Shown: piece by piece, positions 23,401-42,216 of the stretch
Layout of the letters: the number at the start of each line of letters is the position of its first letter
Numbering within the stretch: the stretch's first letter is position 1
From: a virus
Taxonomy: Duplodnaviria > Caudoviricetes
Direction: 5' to 3' (one strand)
Virus record (IMG/VR): IMGVR_UViG_3300044695_005296
Coordinates: 1 to 58,493 of that record
Length of the DNA: 58,493 bases
Notes under the pieces: generated by a model
The model's input: the letters and a program-made list of their open reading frames with translations, nothing else
Told to the model about the DNA's origin: nothing
The model's database searches: none
Position numbers and translations under genes: made by a program

Positions 23401-25369
23401 CAGAGATTGCAATGCTGGCCCGGAATGTACTTTGCAGCCGGTGTTGCTTTGGTGCTCCGTTATTAATGATGACTTTTGGAACATGCTTGATAACGCTAGT
23501 GTTGGTCGCCACAATAGGATCATAGGCATACGCATTAAGGTTTGGCGAAAACTCCGCAACGAAATCCGCAACTGTCGTAATGCGATCAATGGCGTTGCTG
23601 TCTTCGTAGGCTTGTGCTGGGTAGCCAGGAAGCCACTGTCGAAGGATTGGGTTGTAGCGAAGGGTTTCTATGTGGTCAACGTTGTCTAAGTAGTTAATTC
23701 CAAGACCGTCGTAGTCTTCGTTGTATGGGTCCGTAGATCGAATAGACTCAAAGATAGAGGTAGTGATTGCTTGAATTTCAAGAGGGTGTTCCTCATCGTA
23801 ATAGAGCAAGCGCGCCTCCGCCTCTCCGCCAGAGCTTTCATACGCAATTTTAAAATTGTTTGCGTCGGCAACGTCTGCAACTGTTGCTGAGTACCAAGTC
23901 CCATCGGCGGTTGTAACGGCAATAAAACTACCAGTCCACGGGGCGAGCTGATTGTAGGTCTCAGGAGATATTAATACGGTATCCCCGCCAGACAGACCAT
24001 GCGACGTGCCAGTCGTAAATGTGGCTATGGTTGTGCTCTCTTTTCTCGCAACCGGATCGTATCCAGAAGCAAGGAATGGGGAAACAATATTCGCGTTAGT
24101 AAACGGGGTGGAGGCGGTTGCGGATGGGGTCGCTACGCGGTGAACAAAGAAAAACTTGCGAGAGTTTTCAATAATGTCAACAATGTATTTTGTGTTGGAA
24201 AGTTTAGCAATGCCGTTCCATAGGCTTGTGTCCGTGTGCGATTGATTGTTTACCTTTAACGCCTGCCCGACTTGCAGCTGATGGTCTTCCGCGCTGTCAA
24301 CTACGACCTCATGATTCCACAGCTTGAACTGCTGGCCATCCGCAATCATGGCCCCAGCATTTGCGGAATCGCACACCTGGTAGTAAATACCAGAGGAGTT
24401 TGTACCCTCCCAAAGCCCAACAACTTGATACTCATAGCCGCTGCTGCTGTATTTAAATCTTTCGTTACGGCGGATTCCGTGAGTGGTTGTGGTTTCGGCT
24501 TTTTGCACTCCGTTGTCTGAATCATATGAGACCTGGGTAAACGTGTACGAGGGAACATCAGGCGTGCTAATAGAGATTCTATTGACGCCTATTCTTCCCG
24601 CCTCATACAGCTCGCCACCAACAATCATCTCCCAGCCGTAGGTGTCCTGAGGTACGCGGTAGCGATCAATAACGCGCTCGTCTAGCAGGGCGGTATAGTC
24701 CGCACACGTGAGCTGCTGCAAGATCACCCCGCCAGCGCGCTTCTCCTCTACGGACATCATGACGCCACCGAAGAGCAGCTCGCTTACTTGAACATAAAGT
24801 ATTGCGGTATTGGTACCAGAAGCAACAGCGGTCTGGGAAATGGTTCTGGACGTTGCTTCGAGGTAGCTAATTGTGGTGCTGGTAACGGCGGTAATCGTTC
24901 GTTGGCCGCCAAGCATTAAGGGGTCTGGCGAACGCGCGGTGTCCCCAGCCAGGGTAACCACCAACGAGTTGCCCACAGTAAGCGTGTGGGACTGATTGAG
25001 TGTGAGCGTTACCGTAGTGCCGCTTTGGCTGTAGTGCGTTACTGCGTAGTACTTAGATAGGTCGCCATACGACTGAGATATCTTTATCTCGCTGCGTAGC
25101 GGGATCTCAAACCTAAACGTTGGGTCTAGCAGCGCTTCGGCAATAGACTCAGCTTCAGTTGCAGCGTACTCGTTCCAGCGCTTGCCAGAAAAGGGAAATA
25201 GCGTATACAGGCCAATGTCCGCATTGGCAGTTGATCCGTCAGCACTTGATGTAAATTCAAAAGCGTCGGAGTCTACTCGACCCGTGACGTCGTAAAACGC
25301 CAACGGGTCGGTAGCACCTTCAAACCTGGGCTGTATTTCTACTTTCAGGTCTTTTGTTATATTCATCAA
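17432..25369 (-). CDS. Very large tail-tip/hub protein with repeated beta-barrel inserts, LamG-like and carbohydrate-binding-like domains
   Basis: Directly after the TMP; LFGG...LTCADY and TLRQVLDFIS..GAQFWV hub-like motifs; FDGYIGEII (LamG-like); NLVENPMFE (CBM-like). Confidence 0.75.
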   Translation of the reverse strand: MMNITKDLKVEIQPRFEGATDPLAFYDVTGRVDSDAFEFTSSADGSTANADIGLYTLFPFSGKRWNEYAATEAESIAEALLDPTFRFEIPLRSEIKISQSYGDLSKYYAVTHYSQSGTTVTLTLNQSHTLTVGNSLVVTLAGDTARSPDPLMLGGQRTITAVTSTTISYLEATSRTISQTAVASGTNTAILYVQVSELLFGGVMMSVEEKRAGGVILQQLTCADYTALLDERVIDRYRVPQDTYGWEMIVGGELYEAGRIGVNRISISTPDVPSYTFTQVSYDSDNGVQKAETTTTHGIRRNERFKYSSSGYEYQVVGLWEGTNSSGIYYQVCDSANAGAMIADGQQFKLWNHEVVVDSAEDHQLQVGQALKVNNQSHTDTSLWNGIAKLSNTKYIVDIIENSRKFFFVHRVATPSATASTPFTNANIVSPFLASGYDPVARKESTTIATFTTGTSHGLSGGDTVLISPETYNQLAPWTGSFIAVTTADGTWYSATVADVADANNFKIAYESSGGEAEARLLYYDEEHPLEIQAITTSIFESIRSTDPYNEDYDGLGINYLDNVDHIETLRYNPILRQWLPGYPAQAYEDSNAIDRITTVADFVAEFSPNLNAYAYDPIVATNTSVIKHVPKVIINNGAPKQHRLQSTFRASIAISGGELLVTVANNFVEGDKFYLRKVDDVLTGDIPAYRIFEINENTTSSVIHATINSADAVFTLGGSATAEIVMVPVHNAQAGTLKFYTSKHHAIKPGETIRLNNFKINETQQFEGGFDNTFSVEDVSAKLEDNTKDFSSISLIVGSEDPGMEVFPSRETPSRVTTFEEDQKYLESRTNRYRIIHARKESGIGELTAIIAEVIVAYELVAANQIKITLNVEADSFTTNQVVRILGLIPPFSGLYSVSAVSGKTVTLTSYGSANIFTAESAAVSGTPTWDTTTKRLTVTATAHPFSLGDYVNIYPNSGSGSVIHREKVVAKATNTFTIARPFNPGLGALTNYRAAAGYVAAFTAQSYSAVNSVGGVTTFTAAAHAFSSGDRVSIPGNVYCTNAKVTSVTKSNVLVETGADVGVATGSLVLGEVPEQTTVSSLQRSFDTNFKRDVLQLSTTDSHGLVRNPTSIIDIVPLNVIQALEAEGGVATILAVNSGQDFVVGADSTGTLTSAGTPFDMIIDKTFGNFGADTSSALGIVVSRIGEGMVEHEAITVSGVGGSLFDTSVPRRIGGIKHYGVSSNYNAMSLYWQANGIVTLYFADTLTEELKDAFSSGRSVYLDLSTTNLGYENKFAGIRTIINAGSVLGNDEHNDQRGKTEGKPYIQWLQDQPLTAEIGAYTVAAGSVVSADIIEYVDTQKGDSIPYRVADFERKTGSVTKVSQSSINDWSYLNGVFRFTTVKKHGRIAGDQVYFASIGEMTRAGQWNFNNVAPTTAKKKITIVGNAGNVFGVSVGDGSYKIKSIRCTNPTTQKDAFEVELSEDCAELYFPTLGFTLKGIGGVAGVSLANNINLSGIGRINARKFTFETSFGVGGIAANGVMSATSAATITFKAELLNSFATKPQATFTGKRPSTTKTTNWIDSTGASTLTTPFTVKATDGTSDKNYANDLKIPKDGSGALAEMYYYEYLAKARNGSFTSTNGTYLVETDEPHNLGDRQPGIVFTPSAGSPINLSAIDDTAKQLTVTGSNTFTFQSGSLTVGSPTDCTILTRAAYVPGATAPTMPRNPDVFIGGRKALNFVKSKYNLLRTDTLYPSFKDYSVGTDSLDYHQWWTFVIRPNTTTSDMRILQRGDKSTYMAFGINSSNHPFVQLCVSAGSFTKYSIDDITIEDEEECVLQFVVNVNRSTRIASITAYKNFDETGTATSGVLYQSTGIEIDHDSLDSVGYGPGTVVVGAGIASLNTYEEPFDGYIGEIIGFDRLPASSPKNESELLRAWLLHKYGLVSLIDPDYEPDYRDINNVPNQRLAEASQVKDTQFGGRTLRQVLDFISKNSGAQFWVNKNKELEYRKISTANLVENPMFENDRGTGSVKRWNGTTENHTLAKDTAGEFDRTAGPWGYGYAMKSSGTSATSVYSDFINIGPSEETLAAGDLFFVSAYVKSSDTSRMAVRVHFYSAATNTVGSGYANSYVDLYSGWANNDEWRKMWKIVKIPVGSSKFTVGLLALAGGASETHYWTDIRAVKLTGEFGFADEGNYSNDVLLLNSGETSSDMPMATYPFESPDNIRSAGASANRLYLYTTIPDSDENGITTTAISSNQELMEYTFDHVQGVWNSHGKIVEGSKAEESARTLKEVSGKAEAFFSESGQASGSYQFEHPNNGLPGLLTPGSVIPYLWSEVDIWEPMIVKSQSTKLIGPEMYHTVTLQQEPDYQKNALVLIGRRVIAVDLASASPATEKPPAPQRFIVEATDPDGFANTIETIFDLSWSYPFGDATTRGVETGGFEIQVRTRKRKLAQVSKKGSSIKDGEKLIAFAASGGNPQTLVTVYGKYTGMVIGSPVTISGAPENLGNKTVPSGLTLNGTFRIQDKIQNGFKYYVMTPEDTNEATEEQFKSTPAGFILGKSAPDLNVAYKTALKGAYGPWLTDTKTTLKTGKGTTTRASWNAAALAVDGDDGAGDLNIDQDYQFRIRAIAQFGTATTPVYNYSDWVQYPMADDAVTVGGKEVL

Positions 25370-28300: not shown

Positions 28301-31300
28301 GTGCCTTTGTTTTCTATCGCAAATCCTGTAAGTCCCGCTTGCGCCCTGGTGACCACACCCTTTAGGCGATCCCGCTCTGCCAGGACTTTCTTTTTGCTAA
28401 TCTTGTCAAGACCTTTTTCTACGCGCTCTTGCTGGGCAACTATTGCATCAACGTTTGCCTCTGCGGCAGCAGCTGCCATTGCGGCCCTAACGACATCTGC
28501 CATGGTGGTGGAAATAATGTCGCCAAGTTCCTGGAATCGCGTAGCAAATGCGGTGCCCATAATGTCTGCCAAGGCCTCGCCCTGGAATTGACCCGTTGCA
28601 AGAATAGATTCAATTGGCAGTCCGGCGTCGCCAAACATTGCGTAGAATTCTTCCTGGGCATCGGCCGCCTTGATCTTTCCTTCTTGAATATCCTTAAGGA
28701 GCTTCTGCGCTCGTTCCTGAAGCCTCCTAGCCCGCTCTTGCTGGTCCGCCCCAAGGGTTTGTTCTTTTTCTTGATAATATGTTGAGACCTGCTGATATTG
28801 AACGCTGTTTTTTGCTTGCTCAATTGACGTCTCCATAGACGACAGCTGATAATCCGCCTCTTCTTCTTGTAGCTTTTTGGCGGCCTCTCGTGCGGCAATA
28901 GCGGCCTCGATTGGATCCTTTTGTGCGTCAAACAGGCCAAGGGTTGCGCGCGCTGCGTTTTCCTGAGCGTCGTTTAATGCATTAAGCTTTTCCTGCTCAG
29001 CACGCTGCTCTTTCATTGCAGTGTACTGTTCTTCCAAAACACCAAGCCGCATAATTTCGCCGTTGTGCAACGCGTCAACGTTGTAGATGGCGTCTTCTTG
29101 CTCGGCCTTCAACTGCGCGGTTTCTTCCGCGAATGTTTTATTAAGAAGCTCCATTGCCCTTGAAAGGAATTGATCAAATGCAGTTGCAAATGGATCAAAG
29201 ATCTTGGCAAGCGCCTTGGAAAGCTTGTCTAGGTTCTTTTGCGCGTCGTCTAGGCTTTCATTGAGAAGCTTAAGCGAATCACTTGTGGAGAAGAGCGCCT
29301 CGTCTGGCGTGCCCTCTTTATTAAATTCTCCCGTGAACGCCATTCCCTTTCCGCCCAAGCCGAATTTACTAAAAATCATTTCGTCTATTTGCGCTTGGCC
29401 AAAGTTCTCTGCAAGATATGCAGCCGGGTCAATTATCGCTGCTGGGAGTGTCGAGGTTGGGAGGCGGTAACCGCCAGCGTAATACATACCCTTTTCGCCA
29501 GTGACCGCGCCACTTGACATCCCCGCCCCCGCCGCGAGCTCTGTAATGAGAGAAGTCCCGTCGTCCCTAGACATGATGCCCATAGATACCAAGGCATAAA
29601 GCTTGTCGGCCATTTCACTGCCGATTCTTGCTGCAGCATTAGTGTTTGTAGCCTGATTGAATGCGACCATTTGCGAATCAAACGGGCGCATTGCCTCTCT
29701 ACTCAGGGCGCCAGACTGATATGCCGCAACTTCTTTTTCTACAGTTGCCTTTAAGTAGCCTGCTGTTTTTCCAGCTTTTGTCGGGGTGTAAATTGAAACG
29801 CCGGTTTCCCCTTCAAGGTTGTTTGCGGTGTACATTCCAGAAGCAACCAGCTCGTCCATTTCGGACGCTGATTTCTTTATGGTTTCTATCTGATCGTCGA
29901 TTACCTGCTTAGTGCTATAAGAAGCCTGTCCGGTAAGCGGGTCTTTCTTAATTTCCTTAACTGCAAGCCCACTGTCCTTCCAGGTCTTGGCAACATCTTG
30001 CATCTGCTTGCGGTCATTAGCACGACTTTCTTCGTAAGACATAACGGCAGCTTTGTTAGCAGAATTTACTGCTTCATTTGCAAGTACAAGACCTCCCAAT
30101 AGTGTGCCGAGGCCCATCATGCCGCCGCCCTTGCCAAAGAAGCCGCCTACTTTTCCAAGAATCCCCGAAACTCCGCCCATTGGCGCTATAGCTAGAGCAA
30201 CCTGGGAAGCAGTCTGCAAAACTGCCGCAAAGCCAATAAGTCCTTGTGACGCTTGCGCAAGTCCATCAATCTGCATACCAAACGCAGACGTAATTGCCTG
30301 CACGGCCATTCCGAGGCCACCAAGGGTCATGGCAGCCTTGGATGCCATGCCGGTCATTTCGGCAAAGGCCTCGGTACCGCCACCCATTAGTTGAATGTCG
30401 TCAATCGTTGAAGCGGCCGCCACAACAGCAGCTTCTATTTTTTCTTTTGCGGTTACCGGAAGATTTCGGTCTCTTTCCGGTCGACGATTTATAATGTCTT
30501 GCAAAGCGCGAGCTTTATTAATCTCGTAGGCAAGCCCCGTTGGGGAACCAGCCAATCCCTGTAGCCCCTCGACGCCTTGGGCAGCTACCCGTTGCGCCGG
30601 AGTCATGTATTCTTCGTCAATTGGGAGAGGGTTTAATCCCTGCTCTTTCCTTGCGTTGTTCTCCCTATGTTGTTCAGCCCTTCGCTCATCGCGCATTTTT
30701 CTGTATTCGTCAATGTTTAAACCAGATTCAAGAGCCAAAAGCTTTTCATCAGATTCGTATTTATCTAAAAGAATTGACCTGCCGCTCTTTGTAATCTGAG
30801 GATCTGCAATAGAGCCAGAGAGAAGGCCTGCCTTCAGCAATTGAACTGTTTTTGCGTGAGTCCTTTGGGCCAAGGCGAGCTCTTCCGCCGAGGCCGCCTC
30901 GCCAAGGGCTCGATATCTGGTGACTGGCTTCTGAACGGCCATGCCATCTGGGCGAACCTCGCCAGTGATCTCATATCCGGTGTACGGGATTGGCGCTCCA
31001 GCGTATATCCCTGTTGCGTGTTCCTTAAAGTAGCTTGGCGCGGCCCCCTGGCCCGCAAAATCTCCAGGCTTAAAGCCCGTAGTTTGACTAATTCCAATCC
31101 CGCGAGGCTCCATCGCCGATACCGTTTTGGGCTCCATCATTGGCTCGCCTGTTTCCGGATTGGACAAAGGCATTCCAGTTGCTGGGTCTATAACGGGAAC
31201 CATTACTTCTTTTGTTGGCCCAAGAATGCCGTATCTAGAGGCTCCGGTTCGACCGTATGAGCTCATTTCCACAGCAGCAACCTGCATATTTTGCTGCAAG

Positions 31301-34300
31301 CCTGCAAGCAAACCCGATACGCCGTTAGTGAGAATGGCCATACCTTCGATTGCTGCCTTCTTTACAACAAACGCGCCCATCAAGGATCCGATAAGCGGAG
31401 CAAGTTTTTCCAGAACTCCGGCCATTGCACCAAGCCCTGCGGCTATGCTTGAAATTAGCGGAAGGGCTGCCTTTAGGGCAATTACCAATCCCCCGCCAAT
31501 AATCTGTGCCGCAGCCGCGCCAAGCGCTTTAATTGCAGGGATTAGTGCCTCGGCAATATCTGGCCCAATTTCCATAAGCGGCGCAGCCGCCTGATCAACA
31601 GTGTCTGCAAAGCCAAGGAAGTTTGTTTCGTATGCGTTACGCAGAGCGCCAAGAGCCGCAATTGCAAGAGTGATTGTTGCGACTAGCGGGTTTGTGCTTA
31701 CCGCAGTCATCAGTGCCTTGATTGCCAAGGAGGCAACGACCGCTGCTCGGACTAGGTTATTAGAGAGCAAGTCCCCGATAGTTGCAATGCCGCTGCGCAA
31801 GAAATCTATTGCACTTCCCGTTTCTGATCCGCCGAATACCTTGGCAAACAAGTTACCAAAATACAGCATTGAATTAGCAATTACCTTCATTGATGCAGGA
31901 ATTGCCTCTCTTAGCGTATTCGCAAATCCTTGCAGGCTTTGTCCAATCTTTACAAATATCCCGTATGTTCCCTTTTGCTGCAACAATTCTGAGAAGCGCA
32001 CAAGCAAGTCACGGATGGCGTTATAAAGAGGGCCAGTCATAACCGCAACAAGCGATTGCGACATATCCGAAATGGTGCTCATGGCACCGGTCATCGTCTT
32101 AGAGAGGCGCTCCATTCCGCCGCCGTACTTCTCGCCAAGCCCCTCAATAATTGCCCCTGAGGCAGCCTTTCCTGAAATTCTTCCTGCGGTTGTTAGCCGA
32201 CGGATTGCTTCAATAGGGTTTGCATACAGGTCATTAAGAATTCTTCTTTGCTCATTAGTCATCTTGTCGCCAGTTGCTTCAATTTCTTGAATCAAAGCCT
32301 CTGACAAGATTTCGTAACCAGCAATACCGGCGTTAGCTAGCTGCATCATGTCGTTTTGATACACGCGACCAGCTGATCGCATCTGGCCCAAGGCGTACGT
32401 AATGCGCATGATGCGCTCGTCGCCACCACCAAGAGCCGCAACGGCGTCACCGATGTCCTTGATATAGCCGACTAGTTGCCCGGATTCATCTCTTTGGATA
32501 ACGTCACCAATGTTGAATCCGAACGCTTGCATTCGGACAGCCGCTTCCTGCAGCTGCGTGAAGTAGAACGGCGTAATGTTGGCGAACTCTTTAAGTCGGT
32601 CGATCATGCCGGTAGCACGACCCTCAGCAACTCCCATAGAGTCGCCTGCGTTATAGAACAACGTCGAGAACCCAACCTTTGCGTCTTCAAGCGCCTGGTT
32701 GAACTGGATAAAGCCTGAAGAAAGGTGGCTAATAGATCGGTAAATAGCGTTTGCTGCGTTCTGCGTAAGAACGAATGCAACAGCCAGTTTTGCCGTATCC
32801 TTAAAGGTGCTGATTAATCCGCTGCCGCTGCTTGTTGCAGCGTCTAGCGCCTGGCTAAAGTCAAGCGATCCCTCAGATGCTCGCATAACGGCATCGTCAA
32901 AGTCTTGCATGATCCCGACCATTGGCCGAGTCGCCATAAAGGCATTTTTCATTCCAGAGGCCATGTCGCCAATTTTGCTAAGCCCAGGGAACGTATTCAT
33001 TCCTTGCATGACGTTGTCGAGATCTGAGAAGCCTTGCCCGCCAAATGCAAATGGCATGCTTGTTGCGCCAGCGTCCCCGCCAATCAGCTCCCTGTAATTG
33101 CTATCAAATATTGCCTTGCTGATAGATTCGGCAAGATCGGTTGATAGTGGGTCAAAGTATGGCTGCACTGCTGTTGATCCAGAAACAACTGGGCCAACAG
33201 GTCCGCCACGTCTCCCTCGCTTTGTTGCAGGAACCCTAGTTCCTGGCTGCGCGCCAAGGAGAGGATGGTCTGGTCTGTACTCTCGTACAAATGGGAGAAG
33301 CTCTGGGAACTGCTCTGCAAGTCCGGCAATTGCCGACGAGGCCAAGCTTGTTCTTGCCAGTTCTGTTCCGGCAAGCGGTCTGTCTGGAAGACCGGCCATC
33401 CTGCGTACTTGTCCCCTGTAAATCTGATTTTCTTTTCCGCCGCCAACAACTCCGGTGAGAAGAAGCTCAGAAATTGTAGAAAGAAGGTTTTGGCCCGCTG
33501 CGGAAACTGCAGCAACCCTGCCTGCTGGCTCTGGAACAAAACCAGGACCAGTGCTTGGTGGTGCCGCAGGTCCAGCCGGCTTCTTCTTTCCCCCCTTACG
33601 CTTAGCGCCACCTGCTGCCTCTACGAGTGTGGCAAGCTGCTCTGGATCATCTGCGTCGCTACCTACAATTCCGTGTGGAACCGTCGGACTTGCAGCAACG
33701 CCCAGCTTATCCGTAAGCATTGCCGTAAGCGCTGGTATGTTTTTTGCTCTGCCTAAAGTGTCAAGAACAACAGCGGCGTCAAGGATTCTTTCTGGCCTAA
33801 TTGACTCAAAGACCTTGCTTCGCTCGCTGGCTGGAGTTGCCTTAAGCGCACCTTCAAGTGCTCTGGCAAACATTGCGCCAAGGTCCTTAGGGTTGACGCC
33901 GCCCGCAGCGGCAGCGCCAGTAAGCTGGCCAGACATATTCCTTCTCAGTCGAGCAGCAAATTCAGCAACTGGCTTAAGCGCCGTTCCAAAATGTTGCGAA
34001 AGATCAAAGGCTCTAAGCAAACCGCCCTGATAGGGATTTGCGCCACCGGCAATTCCAGGAAGGATTGAGCCAATGTCCGTAATTCCGCCTGGGCTGCCGG
34101 CTTTTCTTGCTCCGGCATTCATCTGCCGAGTAGAAAGAGCCAAGCTGGCTTCTGTCTCTCCGGGTTGCAATATCTGCGTTGATTGCGCAAGCAGTTCTGC
34201 GTACTGGCTTAGGCCCGCACCACGGGATGCTTCCAGCATCCTTACCTGTGGGCCAAAGTGCCCAGGAACGTTGATATGCATACCTTGTGCATTTGGGTCA

Positions 34301-37300
34301 ATGTCAGCTGCCGTTTTTTGGTCAACATATGCTGGCTCATACCCAGCTTTTTCCTTAGGGCTTAGGGCCTTGTACTTAGAGGCCGCAATTGCCCCCTTTG
34401 GCAAATCAAAATAGCTAAAGCCTTCAAGATTGTTAGCATCTCCAAGTGGTATGGTCTTTCCGCCGACCTTGCTTCCTTTTGGAACAAACATGTCTTCGCC
34501 AGAAATTCCAGAGAATACTCGGTACTGCGAAGGCACCGGGACGCCAATCTTCTTATATACTTCCCGCTCAATGCGGGCGCGCTCTGCTGGATCGGTTACG
34601 CCTTTTACGCGATCCGCAGTTTCCAGTCTTGCATTGTCAACTTTTGCGTGAGTAAACTCGTGCGCAAGCGTAGTCAGCGCGCCGCCAAGCGTAACGTTGA
34701 CTGGATCTTGCCTCCTGCCGCCCAGGTCCATATCGACAGTTCCCGTGCCGCCCTTGCTTACTGGCGAGTAAGACGCCCAAGCTCCCTGGGTCGCAATAGG
34801 ATTTCCAAATTGAAGATCTATACCGCCAGGAACCCCTGGAGGTGCAAACTTTTGAGCAAAGTCTGCAAGGATATTTGCCAAACCACCAACTGCTTTTGGA
34901 TCATTGCCAAACTGAGTAAGGTGCGAAGCAAGAGTTGCCGATCCGGCAAGTCTTAGGCCAGGTGGGATTGGAGCCCCACCAAGTCGCGTAAGATTTGATG
35001 GTCCGTCTCCGTATTGAACGGTGCTTATTGAAGGAAGCCTTACCGCCCCTGGTCCGCTTGGCTTCTTCTTTTGCAACGCTGGGTTTGCGGCAATCTGCGC
35101 AATGTCTGGCGCATAGGTTGAAGGAACCTGACCAAGCATGCTAAACAGCACCTTGCGAAGAGGGATACCCTTCAGGTCGCCGCTCTTAAATGCTGCGGTG
35201 CCCGTGTCTTCGATATCCTTAAGGATGCCGCTGAACATGCCCATGATGGACTTGCGTGCCTTTGGTGCAATGCCGCGCAGGGCTTTCTGCATTGATCCGC
35301 CAGCAAACTCTCCCTGGCCCGTAGCGGCTTCAAGGATGGTCTTTTGGAACGACTCAATACTCTGCCTGAACAGGCTTGGGTTCATCTTTTGGCCAGCAAG
35401 AGATACCTTCAGGTTCTTGATGGCGGTAAGGGTTACCTGCTCAAAGGCGGTCTGCAGGGCTGTGTACGGGGTGCCAGTAGCAGCTCCACCGCTGCGCTTG
35501 CTGTATTCGGCAAAGGGGTTTGTCAGGCCGTTCATACTGCCACCCCCTGATCTTCGTGATAGTTCCCGACCGTCCGGCCGGGCTGCGCCCCGCGATTCAG
35601 CCATGCGACTCCTAAACGCTTCACGTGCGCGTCTGAAGATAGCATCGACTGTTGCGAGTGCTTCCTGCTCACTATATCCCCCTGCTCGCAATGCTTCAAG
35701 CAATTGCGGCTCTATAACTTTTCGCCGCGTCATGATGCCCGCAAGGGTAGCGGCTTCTTCCCTTGCGAGTTTTGTTTGAGTGTCCCGGAACTTTCCGGGG
35801 ATTCCAATTGGCACATCGCTGGCTGGGCGATATGGCTGTTGTCCAATCCTGCCGGTGCCCGGTGGGCTCAGGGTCAGGTCGTGATCAATGGCGGTCACGC
35901 GATAATTTCCAGGAGAGCCTACGCCGCCCTTCGGGTCGGCTAAATTGAGGAGGTAGTTAAGTCCGTGTCGGTCAAATGTCTGCCCAAGATGATCAAGGAT
36001 CTGCATGCGCCTTCCGCCCCTGCTTGCAAGCCACGGCTTATCGCGAAGGGCTGGATCATCTGAGCGCGGGCCTAGGGGCTGGGAGAAGCGACCGATAATC
36101 TCGTCGTCTTCCCATACATCAACCATCTTTGACGGAGGTGCGTTGCGCTTGTTGACAAAGTCAATTGCGGTTTCCCCTGGGGCCATTGGCTGAATTGCCA
36201 TTCTCCTGCCACCAATGCTGCGCTCCAGAATTGTTGGGGTGTCCACCCCGAGAAGCCCAGCAAGGATCTCCATTGCCTTGTTTGGGAATTTACCCTCCAT
36301 CGGCTGCGCAAGGACATTTCTTACTTCTCCAGTAAGAGTTTTCAAAGCAAGGATTTGTTTGCCAGCCCCGCCAGACCAGTGGCCGATGCCGTGCGAGCCC
36401 ATGCCGGTAATGTCTCCGCCCAGCAAGTCCTGCAGCGTCATCCCATAGGTTTGTCCACCAGTAATCTGCTGCATGATGTTTGGCCTGCCCCTACCAAAGA
36501 GACCGCCAAGCATTCCACCAATGCCGCCAGAGCGCTTGCTGTATTCAGCCCATTGGTTGTTTCTTGCCAAAATGCGCGCAACTCGATAGCCAAGTTTATT
36601 TTTTGCGTCTACATCGGGATGCCCGCCAAGGGCAGCGTCTGGCGCCCCCCATGCGCGACTGCTCCATTTTGCAAACATTTGAGCCATCCACTCGGTCCCA
36701 ACATGCATTTGCCCTCTAATAGAGCCATATCCGCCAATTTTCCAAAGCTCTTGCATTGCTTCATTAATATTTTTATATTGCTTTGGAAGGACGCTGGCAA
36801 GCGGACCCTGCTTCCCCATCAGCATCATTTCGCCAATTTTTCGCATTTGGAGTTGCTCAGTAACATCCTCTACCATAAATCCTGTTTTGTTACTTCCATA
36901 CATCGTTTTTTGTTTCTTACTGCCAGGATGGAAAAAGCCACTGTAAGCGCCGCCCTGCCTGTTGCTTTTGCCGTCTATTTCTCCAGGCAAATAAAAATCT
37001 TCTGGCTTTAATCTTCCGCCAGTAGTCTCTTCAACATTTGCAAGCGCGGCCATCTGCGCCATGCCCTTTTTGTAGTCATAATGGTAGCCCCTGGCGCCGC
37101 GACCCATGCCATCTCTTCTGTCTCCGTATACAAACTCATCATATGGCTGATACCCGTAAAAACTAATACCTTTTTGTTTCATTGCTTCTTGATATTTGTC
37201 AACAGCCATTACGTGACCGAGCTCATGGGCAAAGATGCCGTGTATGCTCTGCGCCCTGCCAGCAAGGCCATCCTTGCTCGCAAAACGAGGATTCTTTGAC

Positions 37301-40300
37301 TTGTAGTAATCAAAGTATGCATTCTTGTCGTGTGCCGAATCTGGCGTAAGCAAATAATCCATCAGGTTTATCGGTCCAGAACCGACTGATGCCGTGCCAG
37401 TAGCGCCCCCATGCAATTTTTCGTATGACATCCTGATTCCGGTACTTCTTGGACCAGCAAGCTCTTGCATTTGTTCTGGATACTTCTTGTGGAAGCTTTC
37501 TACAGCTGCAATAATTTCTTGCAGTCGCCCTCGGTGAGCATCAGCCGGAACATTGTCAATTCGCAAGCCGCTAGGTGTCACTACTTGGTAATACGGAATG
37601 CCTCGGTGTCCGCTTGGCCTTGGGATTGGCTGTCCTTTACGGGGTCCAGCTACATACGTTTCGTTCTGGGGGTAAAATCTTGTTCCGCGCGTAAATGAAC
37701 CAAGCAAATTTTCTTCGCTTAATCTAAAAGCGGTTTGCCCTAGGTAATTTGGGTCTCCCGGACCCATCCTTCTAACAAGTTTTTCTTGCATTGGGTACGA
37801 TGTCTTGCCAGACCTTCGCGCAAACTCCATTGGGCTGTAGGCAATGCCCTGCTCTGCAAGGCGGGCTTCTACTCTCTTGATCTCTGCACGGATTTTTCCG
37901 TACATGTCAACAACCTTGTCTCCACCCATATGCATAAAGCTGCTTCTAGCGCCTAGGTCGGTAAATTCAAACCCGAGCGCCTCGTACAGGCCCATACCTC
38001 TTTCACTGGCTTTTAAGCTCAGTCCACCAGGGCTGCCTGGTCGCATGTTGAGGCGGGGGAGATCTTCTGGGGACACACCGTATTTAGCCTCTAGGGCGCC
38101 GGGGTATCTTCTTCGAGCCTCCATAGTTGCCCGAGCGTGCCGACGCAACTCATACGCCATAAGGCTTGTGCCGACACCTGGCACCCCAAGGCCGGACAGG
38201 CCAGCAAGTTTGCCTTGCTCGCCAGTGCCTGGCATTCTATGGGTCATTGCGCCAACAACAAGATTTCTTAGGCCAGCAGCGTCTTCCATGCCTGGGACAT
38301 AAAACCTATTTGGCGCGGTAGCAATAAACCCGCCCGTAAGCCCAATGCGGCGATTGCCGCTTTGGCCGGCCCTCCTATCTCTTCGCGCACCAGGCGTACC
38401 CGCGCTCACCTCTCTAAACGCATCAAAACCACTCATTTCGTCAAGGGCAGAACCAACCATATCCGCACGCGCCCTTCGATCAGTGTCCGTTGCATCCATC
38501 AAAGCTGAGCTTGTGAGCACTGAGCCCGGAGCCAATGTGGCAATTGATCCCATTCCTGATCGCTGGCGTCTAAACAGTTGGTACGCCCGAGCTGCAGCCA
38601 TTTGATCTGCTCGTGAAGTAATTCTTCTAACGTTTCCATCGTTCTGAACTGAAACGCCCATAGCCTGAAGCTGAGCATTAATCAACCGCTCAGGGTCTGG
38701 GGCAATTTCCCGAACCCGCATACCGGCGTTGTGGGATGCCACAAGAGCTTCCGCAAAAATCTGCTCGGGGCTTCTGCCAGCAAGGTTTTGAGGAATTATA
38801 GGCCTAGATCCCCTGCTTGCTCGACCAGGAATGAACTCTTTTCCTGTAACCAAAGACGTCCTAGTTTCATCTTCAAAAGTCACTGGTCGAGCTTTTTGGT
38901 CCCTCTGTTTTCTTTGCAGCATTTCGCCAAGCAGCCGAATCGGTCTTGGGAGCTCAGCAAAATCCCCACTAGGAAGATCTTGTGGAAGCATGACCCCGCG
39001 TCCAGTTGCCCTGGTTCTTGCAGCAAGTTTTCTCTGGGCCCCAGAACGGCGCGACATTTGCAGCATTTGATAATACTGTCCGGCATCGGTCGATCCCGAA
39101 GATGCCTCTGCCTCTCTTGTAATTGCAGCAGCCTCTAGCCGTGTTCGAAGGGTCTCCATGTACTTTTTAGTGTCTCTATATGAATATCCAGCAGACAAGA
39201 AAGATTCTTCAACAATCTTCATTGACCTCTTGCCGCCAAGAATTCCCCTTAGAGTTTTTGCTTCTCGCGCAGATGCGTCTTGTTCTTGCTTGTTTAATTT
39301 TACTCTTGAAAGTGTTCCGCCACCTTTATTCCACGGCAGCAGTGCGCTCAATGACTGAGGAATCTCTCGCGGCTTATAGCGCGCAGAGAATGAGGAGAAT
39401 TGCGGCGTATTGTTTAACTGCCTATCAAGGTCTGAGATGGGCCTATCAAGGCCGCGCATGCTAAATAAATGCTCATTATCAATGCCGACGATTCTTTTTC
39501 TTCCGCTTCGACCCTTGCCGACCATGATGTTGCTGCCGTGTCGATCTGACTGGCCAAGGATCTGATCAAGGAGCATGATGCGTCGCATGTCTCTTGTTGA
39601 GCCAAGGTGCCTAGTTGCTTGCGTTTCAATTTCATTGTTAAATACAGGATTTCCAGGAAGCGACTTGCCCATTGTTTCAAAATTTTCAAGCCAAGGAATC
39701 ATCCATGCATTGCGGCTAAGTGGCCGGTGTTGACGAACTTCTGTGTGTTGGAATTTCCCAGAAGCGATTCTGCGGGTTGCGCCAATGTTTGTTCTAGCCG
39801 AAGAGCCAACTTGCGGTAGTCTTCCGCCAGTTGCCAGTTGCTGCTCTAATGGAGTTAGCCTTCTCCTAACGACAGCGGGCGTTGGAGCCCCAAGCATCCC
39901 GCCAAGAACCTCATATACTTTTTCTGCCATTGGGCTATATGGAGAAAGTTTCTTTCTTCTAGTTTTTCTGTCCCCCTGCCCAAGGTTTCTCCCGACCTCT
40001 CGGCCATCTCGTTGTCCTTTGAGCCCCCTGTCGTTCTCGGGGATCATGGCGATAGCTGTGCCTCGCACTCGATCTCGCCCCGTGCCCATGGAAACGGTGG
40101 TGGATAGTCTTTTTGTGTTTAGGCGTTGGGCGCCAATCTCTTGGCCGAACGACATGTCGCCTCTGCGGATTGCCTCCAGGATTCGACGATCTGGCACAAA
40201 TCCAAAGGCTGTCTCGGCAACGGAGCGGGAGCCAGAGCGTCGTGACATTTCGCGCGGTCCGCCCTTGCCCTCCTTGCCGCCGTAGCCACGACCGTCAACA

Positions 40301-41646
40301 ACTGCACCCTTTTTGCGCAACGTAGAAATAAAGTTTTGTAGCGCTCGGCGGTCTGATGCAGAAGATGGATAAAACACTGGGGCGCCAGATGGGGAAACAA
40401 GTTTTTTATGATTTTTCCCTTTTTCAATTCTCCAGCCTTGCCCGAGAACCTGACCAACTATTCGGTCAATATCCTTGTTGCCGCCACTACCGCCCCTGCC
40501 GGATTTCTTGGAAAACTCCATGAGGCCGCGACCCGGAACGTGGACCGACATTGGCTTTCCCGGTGAAGTTCTTGGGAAGAACGTGCTGCTGCGACGTCTG
40601 GCTCTTCTTGCTGTCTCAATCATTCTTTGCAAATAAGCAGGCATGCGTCGCACGTCTTCTCTCATGCGACCTTGTGGGGCTCGAAGAGCTGATTGAAGAA
40701 GGCTTAGATTTTCTTGCTCTATTGCCGCCTCAAAAAGAGCAAGATCTCCTTGCTGCACATCGTAGCGACCCGAGCGCCTCTTTGGCTTTGGCGGACCAAA
40801 GCGATTGCCACGCCAGGCAAAATTTCTAAGGTCTAACGGCTCAGATGGATATGAGACGTCGCCAGTTTCTGATGCAACAAGCCTTGAAATGAAACGACCA
40901 AGATCACGCGAAGAAAGACGGGAAAGAAGCTGTGATCTTGCCTCTCTTCTAATAAAGTCTGGGTCTGTGTCGTAAGATGGGCCGGTGTCGCCCGTGCGGC
41001 CCTCAATGGCAATGCCTGCCTTGCGCATACCAGAGCGCTTAGACAGCTCCAGGCCAAGCGCGGCCCTTGATATGCCCGCTATGCTGGGTATAGAGCGGGC
41101 AGCCGCCCCGGAATCGTCTAGTGAGGAGCGGGCGCCGCGCGTTCCTGCGGCTCCCGTACCTGCCCCACCTCGACCGAAGGAACCGCTACCAGAGCGACCA
41201 GCATTTCTAAATGCCATCGCTCCGGTGCGGTTTTGCGACATGGCAGCACGCGCCATCGCGTCTGCGGTTCGCATTGCCTGGCGCTCTTGTGCCGCCAAGG
41301 CATTGGTAACTCGCTGGATGCCAGAAACGGCGTTATTGGGCTGTGCCCCAATATTAAATACTCGGCTTAGGCTTGCAGCAGAGGCGTTTGCCTGCGTCTG
41401 CAGCTTTCTAAGTGCGGGTATCGCGTCCGCGTCAACAGCGTTTCTGAATTGCTTAAGGGAGAGAGAGGCTTGGCGCAAACCTCGGAAAGACGAGCCGACC
41501 TTGCTTCCCGCTACCTCAAACTGATTAAGACCCTGTGTAAGCAGTCGGATATCTGCAAGGATGGCCTGTGTTCCAGCCTTGAATTGGCTGGTATCAAGAC
41601 CAATGGATATCTGTCCAGTACTGGACTGATCTGCCGAATCTGCCAC
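25366..41646 (-). CDS. Giant tape measure protein with multiple enzymatic cargo domains
   Basis: Follows the chaperone pair; FANITPF...GDAVAALGG...ALGQM..AGRV...MMQLANAGI tape-measure domain at about 32000-32750; VGERGPE C-terminal motifs. Confidence 0.9.
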   Translation of the reverse strand: MADSADQSSTGQISIGLDTSQFKAGTQAILADIRLLTQGLNQFEVAGSKVGSSFRGLRQASLSLKQFRNAVDADAIPALRKLQTQANASAASLSRVFNIGAQPNNAVSGIQRVTNALAAQERQAMRTADAMARAAMSQNRTGAMAFRNAGRSGSGSFGRGGAGTGAAGTRGARSSLDDSGAAARSIPSIAGISRAALGLELSKRSGMRKAGIAIEGRTGDTGPSYDTDPDFIRREARSQLLSRLSSRDLGRFISRLVASETGDVSYPSEPLDLRNFAWRGNRFGPPKPKRRSGRYDVQQGDLALFEAAIEQENLSLLQSALRAPQGRMREDVRRMPAYLQRMIETARRARRRSSTFFPRTSPGKPMSVHVPGRGLMEFSKKSGRGGSGGNKDIDRIVGQVLGQGWRIEKGKNHKKLVSPSGAPVFYPSSASDRRALQNFISTLRKKGAVVDGRGYGGKEGKGGPREMSRRSGSRSVAETAFGFVPDRRILEAIRRGDMSFGQEIGAQRLNTKRLSTTVSMGTGRDRVRGTAIAMIPENDRGLKGQRDGREVGRNLGQGDRKTRRKKLSPYSPMAEKVYEVLGGMLGAPTPAVVRRRLTPLEQQLATGGRLPQVGSSARTNIGATRRIASGKFQHTEVRQHRPLSRNAWMIPWLENFETMGKSLPGNPVFNNEIETQATRHLGSTRDMRRIMLLDQILGQSDRHGSNIMVGKGRSGRKRIVGIDNEHLFSMRGLDRPISDLDRQLNNTPQFSSFSARYKPREIPQSLSALLPWNKGGGTLSRVKLNKQEQDASAREAKTLRGILGGKRSMKIVEESFLSAGYSYRDTKKYMETLRTRLEAAAITREAEASSGSTDAGQYYQMLQMSRRSGAQRKLAARTRATGRGVMLPQDLPSGDFAELPRPIRLLGEMLQRKQRDQKARPVTFEDETRTSLVTGKEFIPGRASRGSRPIIPQNLAGRSPEQIFAEALVASHNAGMRVREIAPDPERLINAQLQAMGVSVQNDGNVRRITSRADQMAAARAYQLFRRQRSGMGSIATLAPGSVLTSSALMDATDTDRRARADMVGSALDEMSGFDAFREVSAGTPGARRDRRAGQSGNRRIGLTGGFIATAPNRFYVPGMEDAAGLRNLVVGAMTHRMPGTGEQGKLAGLSGLGVPGVGTSLMAYELRRHARATMEARRRYPGALEAKYGVSPEDLPRLNMRPGSPGGLSLKASERGMGLYEALGFEFTDLGARSSFMHMGGDKVVDMYGKIRAEIKRVEARLAEQGIAYSPMEFARRSGKTSYPMQEKLVRRMGPGDPNYLGQTAFRLSEENLLGSFTRGTRFYPQNETYVAGPRKGQPIPRPSGHRGIPYYQVVTPSGLRIDNVPADAHRGRLQEIIAAVESFHKKYPEQMQELAGPRSTGIRMSYEKLHGGATGTASVGSGPINLMDYLLTPDSAHDKNAYFDYYKSKNPRFASKDGLAGRAQSIHGIFAHELGHVMAVDKYQEAMKQKGISFYGYQPYDEFVYGDRRDGMGRGARGYHYDYKKGMAQMAALANVEETTGGRLKPEDFYLPGEIDGKSNRQGGAYSGFFHPGSKKQKTMYGSNKTGFMVEDVTEQLQMRKIGEMMLMGKQGPLASVLPKQYKNINEAMQELWKIGGYGSIRGQMHVGTEWMAQMFAKWSSRAWGAPDAALGGHPDVDAKNKLGYRVARILARNNQWAEYSKRSGGIGGMLGGLFGRGRPNIMQQITGGQTYGMTLQDLLGGDITGMGSHGIGHWSGGAGKQILALKTLTGEVRNVLAQPMEGKFPNKAMEILAGLLGVDTPTILERSIGGRRMAIQPMAPGETAIDFVNKRNAPPSKMVDVWEDDEIIGRFSQPLGPRSDDPALRDKPWLASRGGRRMQILDHLGQTFDRHGLNYLLNLADPKGGVGSPGNYRVTAIDHDLTLSPPGTGRIGQQPYRPASDVPIGIPGKFRDTQTKLAREEAATLAGIMTRRKVIEPQLLEALRAGGYSEQEALATVDAIFRRAREAFRSRMAESRGAARPDGRELSRRSGGGSMNGLTNPFAEYSKRSGGAATGTPYTALQTAFEQVTLTAIKNLKVSLAGQKMNPSLFRQSIESFQKTILEAATGQGEFAGGSMQKALRGIAPKARKSIMGMFSGILKDIEDTGTAAFKSGDLKGIPLRKVLFSMLGQVPSTYAPDIAQIAANPALQKKKPSGPGAVRLPSISTVQYGDGPSNLTRLGGAPIPPGLRLAGSATLASHLTQFGNDPKAVGGLANILADFAQKFAPPGVPGGIDLQFGNPIATQGAWASYSPVSKGGTGTVDMDLGGRRQDPVNVTLGGALTTLAHEFTHAKVDNARLETADRVKGVTDPAERARIEREVYKKIGVPVPSQYRVFSGISGEDMFVPKGSKVGGKTIPLGDANNLEGFSYFDLPKGAIAASKYKALSPKEKAGYEPAYVDQKTAADIDPNAQGMHINVPGHFGPQVRMLEASRGAGLSQYAELLAQSTQILQPGETEASLALSTRQMNAGARKAGSPGGITDIGSILPGIAGGANPYQGGLLRAFDLSQHFGTALKPVAEFAARLRRNMSGQLTGAAAAGGVNPKDLGAMFARALEGALKATPASERSKVFESIRPERILDAAVVLDTLGRAKNIPALTAMLTDKLGVAASPTVPHGIVGSDADDPEQLATLVEAAGGAKRKGGKKKPAGPAAPPSTGPGFVPEPAGRVAAVSAAGQNLLSTISELLLTGVVGGGKENQIYRGQVRRMAGLPDRPLAGTELARTSLASSAIAGLAEQFPELLPFVREYRPDHPLLGAQPGTRVPATKRGRRGGPVGPVVSGSTAVQPYFDPLSTDLAESISKAIFDSNYRELIGGDAGATSMPFAFGGQGFSDLDNVMQGMNTFPGLSKIGDMASGMKNAFMATRPMVGIMQDFDDAVMRASEGSLDFSQALDAATSSGSGLISTFKDTAKLAVAFVLTQNAANAIYRSISHLSSGFIQFNQALEDAKVGFSTLFYNAGDSMGVAEGRATGMIDRLKEFANITPFYFTQLQEAAVRMQAFGFNIGDVIQRDESGQLVGYIKDIGDAVAALGGGDERIMRITYALGQMRSAGRVYQNDMMQLANAGIAGYEILSEALIQEIEATGDKMTNEQRRILNDLYANPIEAIRRLTTAGRISGKAASGAIIEGLGEKYGGGMERLSKTMTGAMSTISDMSQSLVAVMTGPLYNAIRDLLVRFSELLQQKGTYGIFVKIGQSLQGFANTLREAIPASMKVIANSMLYFGNLFAKVFGGSETGSAIDFLRSGIATIGDLLSNNLVRAAVVASLAIKALMTAVSTNPLVATITLAIAALGALRNAYETNFLGFADTVDQAAAPLMEIGPDIAEALIPAIKALGAAAAQIIGGGLVIALKAALPLISSIAAGLGAMAGVLEKLAPLIGSLMGAFVVKKAAIEGMAILTNGVSGLLAGLQQNMQVAAVEMSSYGRTGASRYGILGPTKEVMVPVIDPATGMPLSNPETGEPMMEPKTVSAMEPRGIGISQTTGFKPGDFAGQGAAPSYFKEHATGIYAGAPIPYTGYEITGEVRPDGMAVQKPVTRYRALGEAASAEELALAQRTHAKTVQLLKAGLLSGSIADPQITKSGRSILLDKYESDEKLLALESGLNIDEYRKMRDERRAEQHRENNARKEQGLNPLPIDEEYMTPAQRVAAQGVEGLQGLAGSPTGLAYEINKARALQDIINRRPERDRNLPVTAKEKIEAAVVAAASTIDDIQLMGGGTEAFAEMTGMASKAAMTLGGLGMAVQAITSAFGMQIDGLAQASQGLIGFAAVLQTASQVALAIAPMGGVSGILGKVGGFFGKGGGMMGLGTLLGGLVLANEAVNSANKAAVMSYEESRANDRKQMQDVAKTWKDSGLAVKEIKKDPLTGQASYSTKQVIDDQIETIKKSASEMDELVASGMYTANNLEGETGVSIYTPTKAGKTAGYLKATVEKEVAAYQSGALSREAMRPFDSQMVAFNQATNTNAAARIGSEMADKLYALVSMGIMSRDDGTSLITELAAGAGMSSGAVTGEKGMYYAGGYRLPTSTLPAAIIDPAAYLAENFGQAQIDEMIFSKFGLGGKGMAFTGEFNKEGTPDEALFSTSDSLKLLNESLDDAQKNLDKLSKALAKIFDPFATAFDQFLSRAMELLNKTFAEETAQLKAEQEDAIYNVDALHNGEIMRLGVLEEQYTAMKEQRAEQEKLNALNDAQENAARATLGLFDAQKDPIEAAIAAREAAKKLQEEEADYQLSSMETSIEQAKNSVQYQQVSTYYQEKEQTLGADQQERARRLQERAQKLLKDIQEGKIKAADAQEEFYAMFGDAGLPIESILATGQFQGEALADIMGTAFATRFQELGDIISTTMADVVRAAMAAAAAEANVDAIVAQQERVEKGLDKISKKKVLAERDRLKGVVTRAQAGLTGFAIENKGTQAAKEAAGVIDNLGDFAVKLQNMPFDGYDEFIQRSQFNEIFDGLYAQFDAIYKKFGDLPTIARTGGEGFAPSTGSGTVTKPPKPTYKPPYATNGDWVWSGTAWNWQPMAAGGPVGAGQYIVGERGPEMLTMFQNGGGYVTPNHQLPSSMQSSSGALKAGKQGRYYGGLVGVTGRAGGGYVGPVGKDDPFWSPTDSFQRSLGFVGDPMGFQQNSFNEFMANPNNTKAQKNEMMRRYPKNYARYVASKIRGGGRMGWSPVMGRAAGGYVGRGRGPIPMDDPITPEPPIPPEPPTWDCPPGYIKVWSEGGYYCEKVTTVIDPPEPPIIDPDTATIPFNWKLYPMLLDSLGDIAANVEFPYTVDPKTGKSRPIPGARTQIFAPFGPGEGGETRLLDEVPGGQFGDEVTQAAGGPVRMQLKPGPNHGGEVGAVVRGGTGWKYKYGWFAQLAKLPFIKGTPFADLLLQPGRLLPHLQPNELGIVKTVGDPNVSPQSRGAKFYPEGVGGKGRGILEDFFKHSNLLRKAERKMYPFWKKGSIGLSSFGWATDLYEAQEKDGNWWEKRLEQIRIEEMSEAYWVNKKREFERNGTLESELARATLNENLQLGSGPLNFTESITGIFDSFDPNKKYDTLKDYTIAEGLASGDFNPGPPIVLSEATKEELDKLKEPLGRSIARVGFGALAETITAVKLAAVAPETLGGSLLASLALTTGAYHVGNKTGGMLWDLPGGIADVVGKVAPFIGYLGQMGWESIFGKGDPGGTSYEDLVKQNKQDYGIPFNLGRAFFDTELLTAAEKEQAQDKMLAAQRMIIPPFMWRPENIGKFRSSEELFSLMGMEPRWVKNYTEMLPGFTGFREWSKVMPKNWNPVKGGTGSTMVGGKSTEPVARAFGGPIKQYTPYLVGERGPELMIPDSSGYMLPNTGLQALQAPGDLRMAGGGATINASVTINNPVVSDAADIDKLAEKVSSAQVRTLRAAGFMRPS

Positions 41647-41665: not shown

Positions 41666-41947
41666 CTAGGACGAGCCGAATCCCGGCTTACCGAATGTTG
41701 CCACTAACTGCTCAATGGAGTCAATGCTTGCTGTTCCTGCGCCCTTTTTATTTCCTTGGCTCTTGGAACGCTTCTTCATATCATCATCGCGCTTCTCAGC
41801 GTACTGAGAAAAGGCATTGAGCTGGGCAAGAGTTAAGTTGAAAAAATCACTGGGGGTAAAGCCAAAGCTGTCCGCGTAGGAAGCCATGATGCTCCCCCAG
41901 TCGATTTCGCTCCAACCTAAGCCTTTGCCGCCTCCTCGCTTTTTCCC
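41666..41947 (-). CDS. Tail assembly chaperone, -1 frameshift extension (gpGT-like)
   Basis: The -1 frame is open from the slippery site (KRGGGKGLGWSEIDWGSIMASY...FGFTPSDFFNLT) to the stop at 41666. Confidence 0.85.
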   Translation of the reverse strand, partial: GKKRGGGKGLGWSEIDWGSIMASYADSFGFTPSDFFNLTLAQLNAFSQYAEKRDDDMKKRSKSQGNKKGAGTASIDSIEQLVATFGKPGFGSS

Positions 41948-42216
41948 GCAGCGCCCTCAACCTCACCGCCAAGAAGACCGCTTGCGCGCATGACCTTATC
42001 GATCTCTTCTCGCATGGTGTCAAGGCTAAAGCGGTCGCCCACTTCGCGCTCGGTAAGCTGCGGCTCGTCCTTCTTCAGAACTAGCCAAAGGATATAGCGA
42101 ATAACGGTAAACTTGGTCAGGTCGATCTGATCAAGCGATCCGTATTTCTCCTCGATATCGGCGAGGTCGTTAAGGGTTAGAACCTTTGTGGGTCTAACCT
42201 GGGACAGGTTTGCCAT
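41917..42216 (-). CDS. Tail assembly chaperone (gpG-like)
   Basis: Between the major tail gene and the TMP; AGGAG RBS. Confidence 0.85.
   Translation of the reverse strand: MANLSQVRPTKVLTLNDLADIEEKYGSLDQIDLTKFTVIRYILWLVLKKDEPQLTEREVGDRFSLDTMREEIDKVMRASGLLGGEVEGAAGKSEEAAKA
41941..41947 (-). other. Programmed -1 ribosomal frameshift site G GGA AAA
   Basis: X XXY YYZ heptamer in the correct phase near the end of the chaperone ORF. Confidence 0.85.

Follow-up and report, generated by a model that had tools for sequence, protein, structure and literature searches.

A 58,493 bp window, which is the full length of the linear IMG/VR virus record IMGVR_UViG_3300044695_005296 (CheckV completeness 64%), encodes a giant tape measure protein (TMP) of 5,426 amino acids (aa), in which a conserved leader and the TMP core frame a long array of basic modules, bounded by a short recurring motif, exchanged between related phages and each under purifying selection. 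The sequence was listed in 24 sequencing runs, 23 of which are described as lake water metagenome and one as metagenome, and the phage, judged by its sequence, is a siphovirus-type tailed phage of lake water. An earlier note on this DNA had read the gene as a TMP built like an effector-delivering polyprotein; the ORF (open reading frame) and its TMP nature are confirmed, the list of domains is confirmed in part, and delivery of effectors by the TMP is plausible. With a confidence little above even, we favour as the whole explanation a TMP-borne polyvalent effector array, which would be carried in the tail and would probably be processed at the motifs.

The gene (25366..41646, minus strand) is a single uninterrupted ORF in the TMP position, as the earlier note had stated. 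Contigs from four other lake-water runs tile the ORF (30/30 bins covered), with 11/11, 13/14, 28/28 and 32/32 of the pieces in each run at least 99% alike, without a single indel inside the ORF and with all eight motif junctions bridged among the pieces listed. Colinear closed ORFs are also present in related IMG/VR contigs from other samples, one of 5,498 aa in locus L012 and one of 5,438 aa in L017, whose 90.8 kb record has terminal repeats and is 100% complete; further related contigs hold end-truncated, colinear copies of the giant ORF. A fusion of separate genes or a chimera made during assembly, which the earlier note had named as a result that would overturn its reading, has next to no probability, as the contigs of all four other runs and the independent contigs of other samples are colinear across every junction. 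Three in-frame starts have a 5-nucleotide (nt) Shine-Dalgarno-like motif (aa 1, 1749 and 2015), a number within chance expectation. The last of these is an ATG at ~35602-35604, which has AGGAG before it and lies 16 codons ahead of the junction between the modules termed M6 and M7 below; it might start a shorter TMP internally, although chance would account for it as well.

The TMP core spans aa 2950-3480 (31207..32799, minus strand) and contains TMP_3 (PF20155), which was matched at aa 3005-3201 with 41.3 bits (cut-off 41), and with 47.3 bits in a six-frame search. It is followed by an acidic tape and C-terminal region with conserved C-terminal TMP motifs (aa 3481-5426; 25366..31206, minus strand), and matches to TMP families in PHROG were found at aa 2975-3439, 4559-4603 (phrog_1538) and 5330-5386 (phrog_5062). 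An 18-sequence profile of the core matched the solved 80alpha TMP gp57 (6v8i, E 4e-7), the remaining matches being coiled-coil noise, whilst tblastn with the core hit 96 cultured-phage records, and among the 30 rows listed, all 27 that were annotated are TMPs. Upstream of the gene we found tail assembly chaperone G (99 aa; 41917..42216, minus strand; phrog_2115 tail protein, E 1.1e-9) and, overlapping it in the -1 frame, an extension corresponding to the T of G/GT (41666..41956, minus strand) that ends no more than 20 nt short of where the TMP begins. Because the overlap of this pair holds a slippery G GGA AAA at 41941-41947, we recognise the classical G/GT chaperone arrangement; an overlapping pair of ~100-aa ORFs precedes the TMP in 16/16 related loci inspected, independent of TMP length. 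The 5,426-aa ORF is a true tape measure protein, and its tape-measure domain begins at ~aa 2950, where the earlier note had placed it.

Eight copies of the motif [LMFY][SA][KR][KR]SG, most of which read E-phi-S-[KR]-R-S-G, divide the first 2,050 aa into units that we term M0 to M7 (copies at aa 201-206, 378-383, 467-472, 864-869, 1275-1280, 1702-1707, 2029-2034 and 2048-2053). All units lie on the minus strand and run from the N-terminus as follows: M0, a conserved N-terminal module ending with the first junction motif (aa 1-202; 41041..41646); M1, a basic module without an assigned family that is found in the close clade only (aa 203-379; 40510..41040); M2, HicA-like (aa 380-468; 40243..40509); M3, the first of two PI3/PI4-kinase-like modules (aa 469-865; 39052..40242); M4, read as a GNAT in the earlier note and here assigned to no family (aa 866-1276; 37819..39051); M5, the first HExxH module, with HELGH at aa 1474 (aa 1277-1703; 36538..37818); M6, the second PI3/PI4-kinase-like module and a paralogue of M3 (aa 1704-2030; 35557..36537); and M7, a 19-aa spacer between two junction motifs (aa 2031-2049; 35500..35556). 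Between the last junction and the core lies a conserved pre-core region, M8a (aa 2050-2949; 32800..35499), in which HExxH is found for the second time, as HEFTH at aa 2329.

The motif is confined to the borders of these units. No copy was found in the 3,377 aa beyond the last junction, a six-frame scan of the window returned a single extra match in a frame broken by stops and none in another open frame, and 2,000 shuffles of aa 1-2100 gave a mean of 0.018 copies and a maximum of one, against the eight seen. It is retained at 5/5 assessable sites in L002 and L003, and in the L014 clade a variant, [VI]-[QR]-F-[AD]-[KR][KR]-G, closes each of four repeated M4-like units. The codons differ from site to site (serine as TCT, TCC, TCA, TCG or AGC; arginine as CGC, CGA, CGT, AGG or AGA), which argues for selection on the peptide and against a DNA repeat or recombination site, a candidate that we reject. 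Cutting by a head protease was likewise rejected, as no junction-like motif was found in the capsid, the scaffold-protease or the other structural ORFs. The arrangement recalls viral polyproteins and dibasic processing, in that several units within one translation product are separated by a short recurring [KR][KR] motif, although here cleavage is predicted only, and the likeness comes partly through the presence of an S8 subtilase gene in the phage. Proteases that act at dibasic sites are familiar from the processing of proproteins, and the motifs of the window's TMP are probably processing sites at which the modules would be freed.

Of the six enzyme-like domains proposed in the earlier note (HicA-like, two kinases, a GNAT and two zincins), the HicA-like domain and the kinases now have moderate support and the zincins weak support, whilst the GNAT found none. 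When aa 380-1579 were searched by phmmer against 1.84 billion proteins, many distant homologues were returned for M2 and for no other part, most of them free-standing and 65-90 aa long; the same search also returned one multi-kinase protein. HicA_toxin (PF07927) gave a weak match, below the cut-off, in one of ten M2 homologues scanned (E 6.4e-4), and none at E<=0.1 on the window's own protein; M2 itself matches phrog_2089. M2 is also the only stretch modelled confidently by AlphaFold2 (predicted local distance difference test, pLDDT, 70-82), as a helix, three strands and a helix (alpha-beta-beta-beta-alpha). A G-x-H in its second strand is retained in relatives as GGH or SGH, at a position that we take to be that of the HicA catalytic histidine. 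On this fold and sequence pattern, we regard M2 as HicA-like with moderate confidence.

M3 and M6 share 23% identity over 287 aa (E 1e-5). Across 10/10 copies of the two modules, a DRHxxN motif and a downstream I-D are invariant (D233, R234, H235 and N238; I254 and D255), reading DRHGSN and IDNEH in M3, DRHGLN and IDHD in M6. We assume that DRHxxN marks the catalytic loop and the downstream aspartate the metal-binding residue. PF00454 falls on this loop in 6/10 copies at E<=1, and hhalign over the same loop gave a probability of 81.6% to P0014, a metagenomic protein of 1,687 aa with a PF00454 match of its own (9e-27). These likenesses, at the catalytic loop, point with moderate strength to PI3/PI4-kinase-like modules.

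The HExxH of M5 occurs as HELGH, HEFGH or HEVGH, that of M8a as HEFTH, HEITH or HEIEH. It is invariant across M5 alleles of 42-90% identity, and in M5 and M8a together it persists in alleles that are only 30-57% identical overall. In Atlas, the nearest named clusters to M5 (M90, DUF7211 peptidase and lethal-factor type) stood at 0.89-0.90, under the 0.9 line, and Pfam gave no zincin family match to the HExxH modules of the window's protein; both are weak candidates for HExxH (zincin) peptidases. A third HExxH, HETGH, lies towards the C-terminus of the TMP, where the sequence is variable, in L012, L017 and L010 (~aa 4270-4995 of those ORFs) and is absent in the window's protein. For M4, neither Pfam nor PDB profiles gave a match, Atlas gave no usable one and the AlphaFold2 model was unconfident. 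Its only likeness to a GNAT is that of its G-x-G-[VI]-G...L and ...LYEALGF stretches to what we take to be GNAT motifs A and B. Members of the L014 clade have the M4 core in four copies. Elsewhere in the front half, M0 has no detectable kinship with the N-termini of TMPs lacking M0, phmmer of both halves against the PDB returned no meaningful match, and a single fragment of 391 aa was all that a word-indexed search returned when shorter relatives of the cargo were sought.

The cargo is functional coding sequence. In pairwise comparisons with four relatives, used where synonymous divergence (dS) was not saturated, the ratio of non-synonymous to synonymous substitution (dN/dS) was 0.05-0.29 in every module (M0 0.05-0.08, M1 0.14-0.24) and 0.14 in the TMP core; every module is under purifying selection. 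Adjacent modules differ several-fold in dS. Two alleles of M5 were seen, the window's being near-identical in L017 and L010, whilst those of L012, L004 and L003 share 42-57% identity with it. Compared with L012 in 20-aa windows, identity is 18/20 at aa 1260, has dropped to 7/20 by aa 1280 and is back at 19/20 at aa 1700; the divergent allele thus begins and ends at the motifs at 1277 and 1704, so that the cassette is bounded by junction motifs. These alignments indicate that the cargo modules are exchanged as cassettes. In all four other runs, loose contig ends were found at nt 35337 and 36616, which suggests that a strain differing in sequence over ~aa 1678-2103, in the region of M6, occurs alongside.

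Cargo and tape differ sharply in charge. Every cargo module is basic, with an isoelectric point (pI) of 9.6-11.3 (M1 11.3), and aa 203-2049 together carry a net charge of +100 (pI 10.3), against a net -35 (pI 5.3) for the tape from aa 2950, with segments of the C-terminal region at pI 4.7-7.0. The N-terminal extension is also strongly basic in 16/20 relatives examined, and a basic cargo would fit either storage inside an electronegative tube lumen or binding to DNA.

The same frame surrounds different cargo in other phages. The TMP core was found in 76 related loci in IMG/VR; 45/81 loci are closed at both ends, with ORFs of 1,537-5,597 aa from stop to stop, in which the core starts between 72 and ~2,830 aa from the N-terminus. 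M0 (aa ~10-182) is present in the window and 24 loci from several cargo clades, some of these loci being two views of one contig. M1 is restricted to the close clade, and M8a is kept in the L014 clade and in L013. Between M0 and the core, the L014 clade has four M4-like units and M8a, L024 a HicA-like module and then ddrB-ParB, L025 and L038 HicA-like plus ddrB-ParB, and L023, L072 and L019 ddrB-ParB, which in these last three is above the Pfam cut-off. Amongst 5.8 billion proteins, 63 cluster representatives of 3,075-5,545 aa are giant relatives sharing the core, with precomputed ddrB-ParB domains in 6/63 and PF00454 in 4/63. The search that the earlier note had proposed, for metagenomic viral TMPs with a common core and variable cargo, therefore found them, and by this comparison the architecture is one of a shared M0 and TMP core with differing cargo between. 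In a second giant clade (L045, L048, L060, L067 and L070; 5,113-5,597 aa), the N-terminal extensions are acidic, with no M0 and no family matches, and may be plain long tape or another type of cargo.

The earlier note knew of no described example of this architecture; a partial precedent is published. In the available text of PMC10770324, the TMP of the Thermus phage P23-45, gp96, is a 5,002-aa protein whose N-terminal ~1,100-1,200 aa are a virion RNA polymerase, which is found in virions as the full-size protein and is proposed by the authors to transcribe pre-early genes at the entry pore. This precedent makes delivery of effectors by the window's TMP a less novel idea than the earlier note supposed. 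Both are giant TMPs (5,002 versus 5,426 aa) with an N-terminal enzyme within one ORF, and gp96, as described in that text, has a folded N-terminal enzyme with a metallopeptidase and membrane segments further on; the text also calls a metallopeptidase domain characteristic of many TMPs, and M8a may by analogy be this domain. P23-45 carries a single two-barrel RNA polymerase, whereas the window's TMP has at least six unrelated modules, and its multi-cassette array, conserved M0 leader, junction motif and cassette exchange are new relative to what the available text describes. An RNA polymerase cargo like that of P23-45 was rejected for the window's TMP, which has no DxDxD (D-x-D-[GAS]-D); this pattern was found in 3/82 ORFs searched, upstream of the core in L059 (aa 97) and downstream of it in L064 and L065. 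The cultured-phage search with the TMP core detected no similarity to P23-45. The ~800 nm tail implied by the length of the window's TMP, as calculated in the earlier note, is not absurd, since P74-26, related to P23-45, is given a tail of nearly 1 µm in the accessible part of PMC10034513.

A second comparison is with the polyvalent proteins of Iyer et al. 2017, which, according to the part of PMC5512222 available, combine kinase, peptidase, GNAT and ParB-like domains in one polypeptide, with between two and fifteen different effector or catalytic domains each, and evolve as mosaics; delivery with the DNA and release by autoproteolysis through metallopeptidase domains have been proposed for them. 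The window's TMP would resemble them in having many effector-like domains per polypeptide, and ddrB-ParB of that set occurs in its relatives; the vehicles differ, those in the available text being head-packaged or transferred by conjugation, with kinases of Ser/Thr/Tyr type rather than PI3/PI4-like, and the word 'tape' does not occur in that text. In the window's own protein, no polyvalent Pfam domain (ddrB-ParB, MPTase-PolyVal, LPD and others) was found at E<=0.1. The Sle1-type effectors of actinobacterial contractile injection systems, so far as the accessible part of PMC13277306 describes them, similarly use a TMP-derived scaffold, as a carrier that can be reconfigured, for variable functional domains within a tail-like tube, although these are bacterial nanomachines with the variable domain at the C-terminus (Sle1), whilst the window encodes a working phage TMP with an N-terminal array. 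In the literature on TMPs, supplements being outside the search, we found no multi-module polyvalent array or junction motif.

We infer, by analogy, that the cargo is delivered into the host and acts before phage genes are expressed. In the explanation that we favour, the array would ride in the tail with the TMP and exit just ahead of the DNA, as proposed for the P23-45 fusion of TMP and RNA polymerase. Inside the host it would supply an effector set for RNA cleavage, phosphorylation and proteolysis, with anti-restriction ddrB-ParB in the relatives, and the eight E-[LMFY]-[SA]-[KR][KR]-S-G junctions would be cut and the modules freed, the protease being either an embedded HExxH peptidase or the S8 subtilase that the phage encodes. 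More tentatively, and with considerable doubt, this can be extended to a full polyprotein strategy, in which the TMP would thread up to seven basic modules ahead of the genome, dibasic cuts would release the enzymes before expression (HicA as an RNase-like enzyme, peptidases, and two enzymes resembling lipid or protein kinases), and the motifs would double as borders for cassette swaps between co-occurring lake phages.

Several observations weigh against the favoured explanation. The best PF00454 score of the kinase-like modules, 25.2 bits, is under the cut-off of 27.1, and PDB profile searches returned nothing for these modules, for M4 or for either HExxH module. AlphaFold modelling, which the earlier note had proposed for each segment, was confident for the HicA-like stretch and for nothing else in either half of the cargo: with 7-sequence alignments, mean pLDDT was 35.2 for aa 380-1276 and 34.5 for aa 1277-2450, and a fold search of the PDB with the first of these models was swamped by helical noise from model residues 401-494. 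In the available account of P23-45 (PMC10770324), gp96 is uncleaved in virions, other cargo-bearing clades have Gly-rich linkers in place of the motif, and ~2,000-2,900 cargo residues per TMP chain would have to fit into the tail tube.

The candidate processing protease is similarly ambiguous. The S8 subtilase gene (4384..5316, plus strand; PF00082, E 5.6e-26), which lies beside the terminase gene, has counterparts in the records with M0-bearing TMPs (present in 8/13, the window counted, and in 4/5 of those at least 90% complete), against 1/8 records without M0 and 0/4 of the complete ones. It is also found in relatives without the junction motif, it is missing from G007, a complete M0-bearing genome, and its co-occurrence with M0 may reflect kinship only, as related genomes share genes; weakened by these three points, the subtilase is a lead and not evidence.

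The same doubts give room to a reading in which delivery is as above and the array stays uncleaved, the motif serving as a linker, a hinge or an element docking to the G/GT chaperone or the tube lumen. Full-size gp96 in virions of P23-45 and the Gly-rich linkers of clades that do without the motif would both fit this reading, which we consider doubtful, if possible, at about a quarter of the weight; it accounts poorly for a motif restricted to module borders and missing past the last junction, for a dibasic peptide conserved as protein, and for the presence of two HExxH modules and a subtilase in the same phage. We think it unlikely that the array is instead removed while the tail is being assembled, or earlier, and is not injected but acts within the producing cell (on assembly, on the timing of lysis or in exclusion), which would leave a virion TMP beginning at ~aa 2050. 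The last junction at aa 2050 does precede a region conserved with the core, the space problem in the tube would be removed, and TMPs of other phages are processed. However, M0, the most conserved part of the protein by dN/dS, lies ahead of the cargo and would be discarded, a HicA-like and ddrB-ParB cargo would seem to suit an invaded cell better than a producing one, and the N-terminal enzyme of P23-45, in the available description, stays in the virion.

Rated lower again is a front half without any enzymatic role, acting as extra ruler or lumen filler for a tail of ~0.8 µm, with the domain calls due to chance. Most of these calls do lack family-level support, the tail of nearly 1 µm in the P23-45 relative (PMC10034513, accessible part) gives such a length a precedent, and the acidic extensions without M0 in L045, L048, L060 and L070 may be plain tape. 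A filler would, however, hardly change composition so sharply between cargo and tape, or contain a HicA-like module with a confident fold and many small free-standing homologues, or hold the catalytic-loop motifs unchanged in the two kinase paralogues and HExxH unchanged in alleles that share 42-57% identity, and its cassettes would not be expected to be swapped as units.

The remainder of the window encodes head and tail proteins of a tailed phage, among others. The terminase large subunit (5313..6740, minus strand), the portal (50858..52987, plus strand), an S78 prohead protease fused to Hva1_TUDOR (Peptidase_S78; 48468..50120, minus strand) and an SU10-type major capsid protein (47235..48461, minus strand) were identified, together with a head-tail adaptor and a gp10-like protein; the S78 protease-Hva1_TUDOR ORF has a long acidic tail rich in Ala, Glu and Pro, which is probably a scaffold. 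Tail completion protein gp17 was identified at 43194..43592, and a tail fibre with an S74 chaperone domain lies at 14116..17529 (minus strand). A 250-aa protein between gp17 and the chaperone (42429..43181, minus strand) is, by position only, the candidate major tail (tube) protein, with no match in the Pfam and PHROG-type family searches of the window's proteins. Directly after the TMP, and overlapping its stop by 4 nt, is a 2,645-aa ORF (17432..25369, minus strand) with no Pfam or PHROG match; in 15/16 related loci inspected, the TMP likewise has a large ORF (1,001-2,834 aa) after it, the remaining record, L030, stopping ~130 nt past the TMP. An exonuclease gene (43720..45003, plus strand; phrog_284, E 1.4e-43) sits on the opposite strand inside the block of head-tail and tail genes, and a collagen-repeat protein (7683..8216, plus strand) and a tail-fibre-like virion protein (8226..9701, plus strand) are adjacent to each other, opposite the main tail genes. 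No tRNA genes were found in the window, cultured phages gave no nucleotide match to it, and a host look-up in genome contigs returned only distant matches to metagenome-assembled genomes, at 29-31% identity (Anaerolinea, Dethiobacter and Thermoleophilia).

P23-45 is, on the available text, an experimentally studied case of a TMP that carries an enzyme into the host. The family described here, whose frame is widespread in lake metagenomes (63 core-sharing cluster representatives), suggests that carriage of enzymes by TMPs is general and modular, with leader and core framing an exchangeable multi-enzyme payload, and it would link two separate lines of work, on polyvalent proteins and on the biology of TMPs. 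It raises the physical question of how a tail tube could accommodate thousands of cargo residues for each chain, and the repeated junction motif provides a directly testable processing hypothesis. If the cargo is delivered, new activities in host takeover or anti-defence might be sought among its modules, and the frame that holds them could be used as a natural scaffold for protein delivery.

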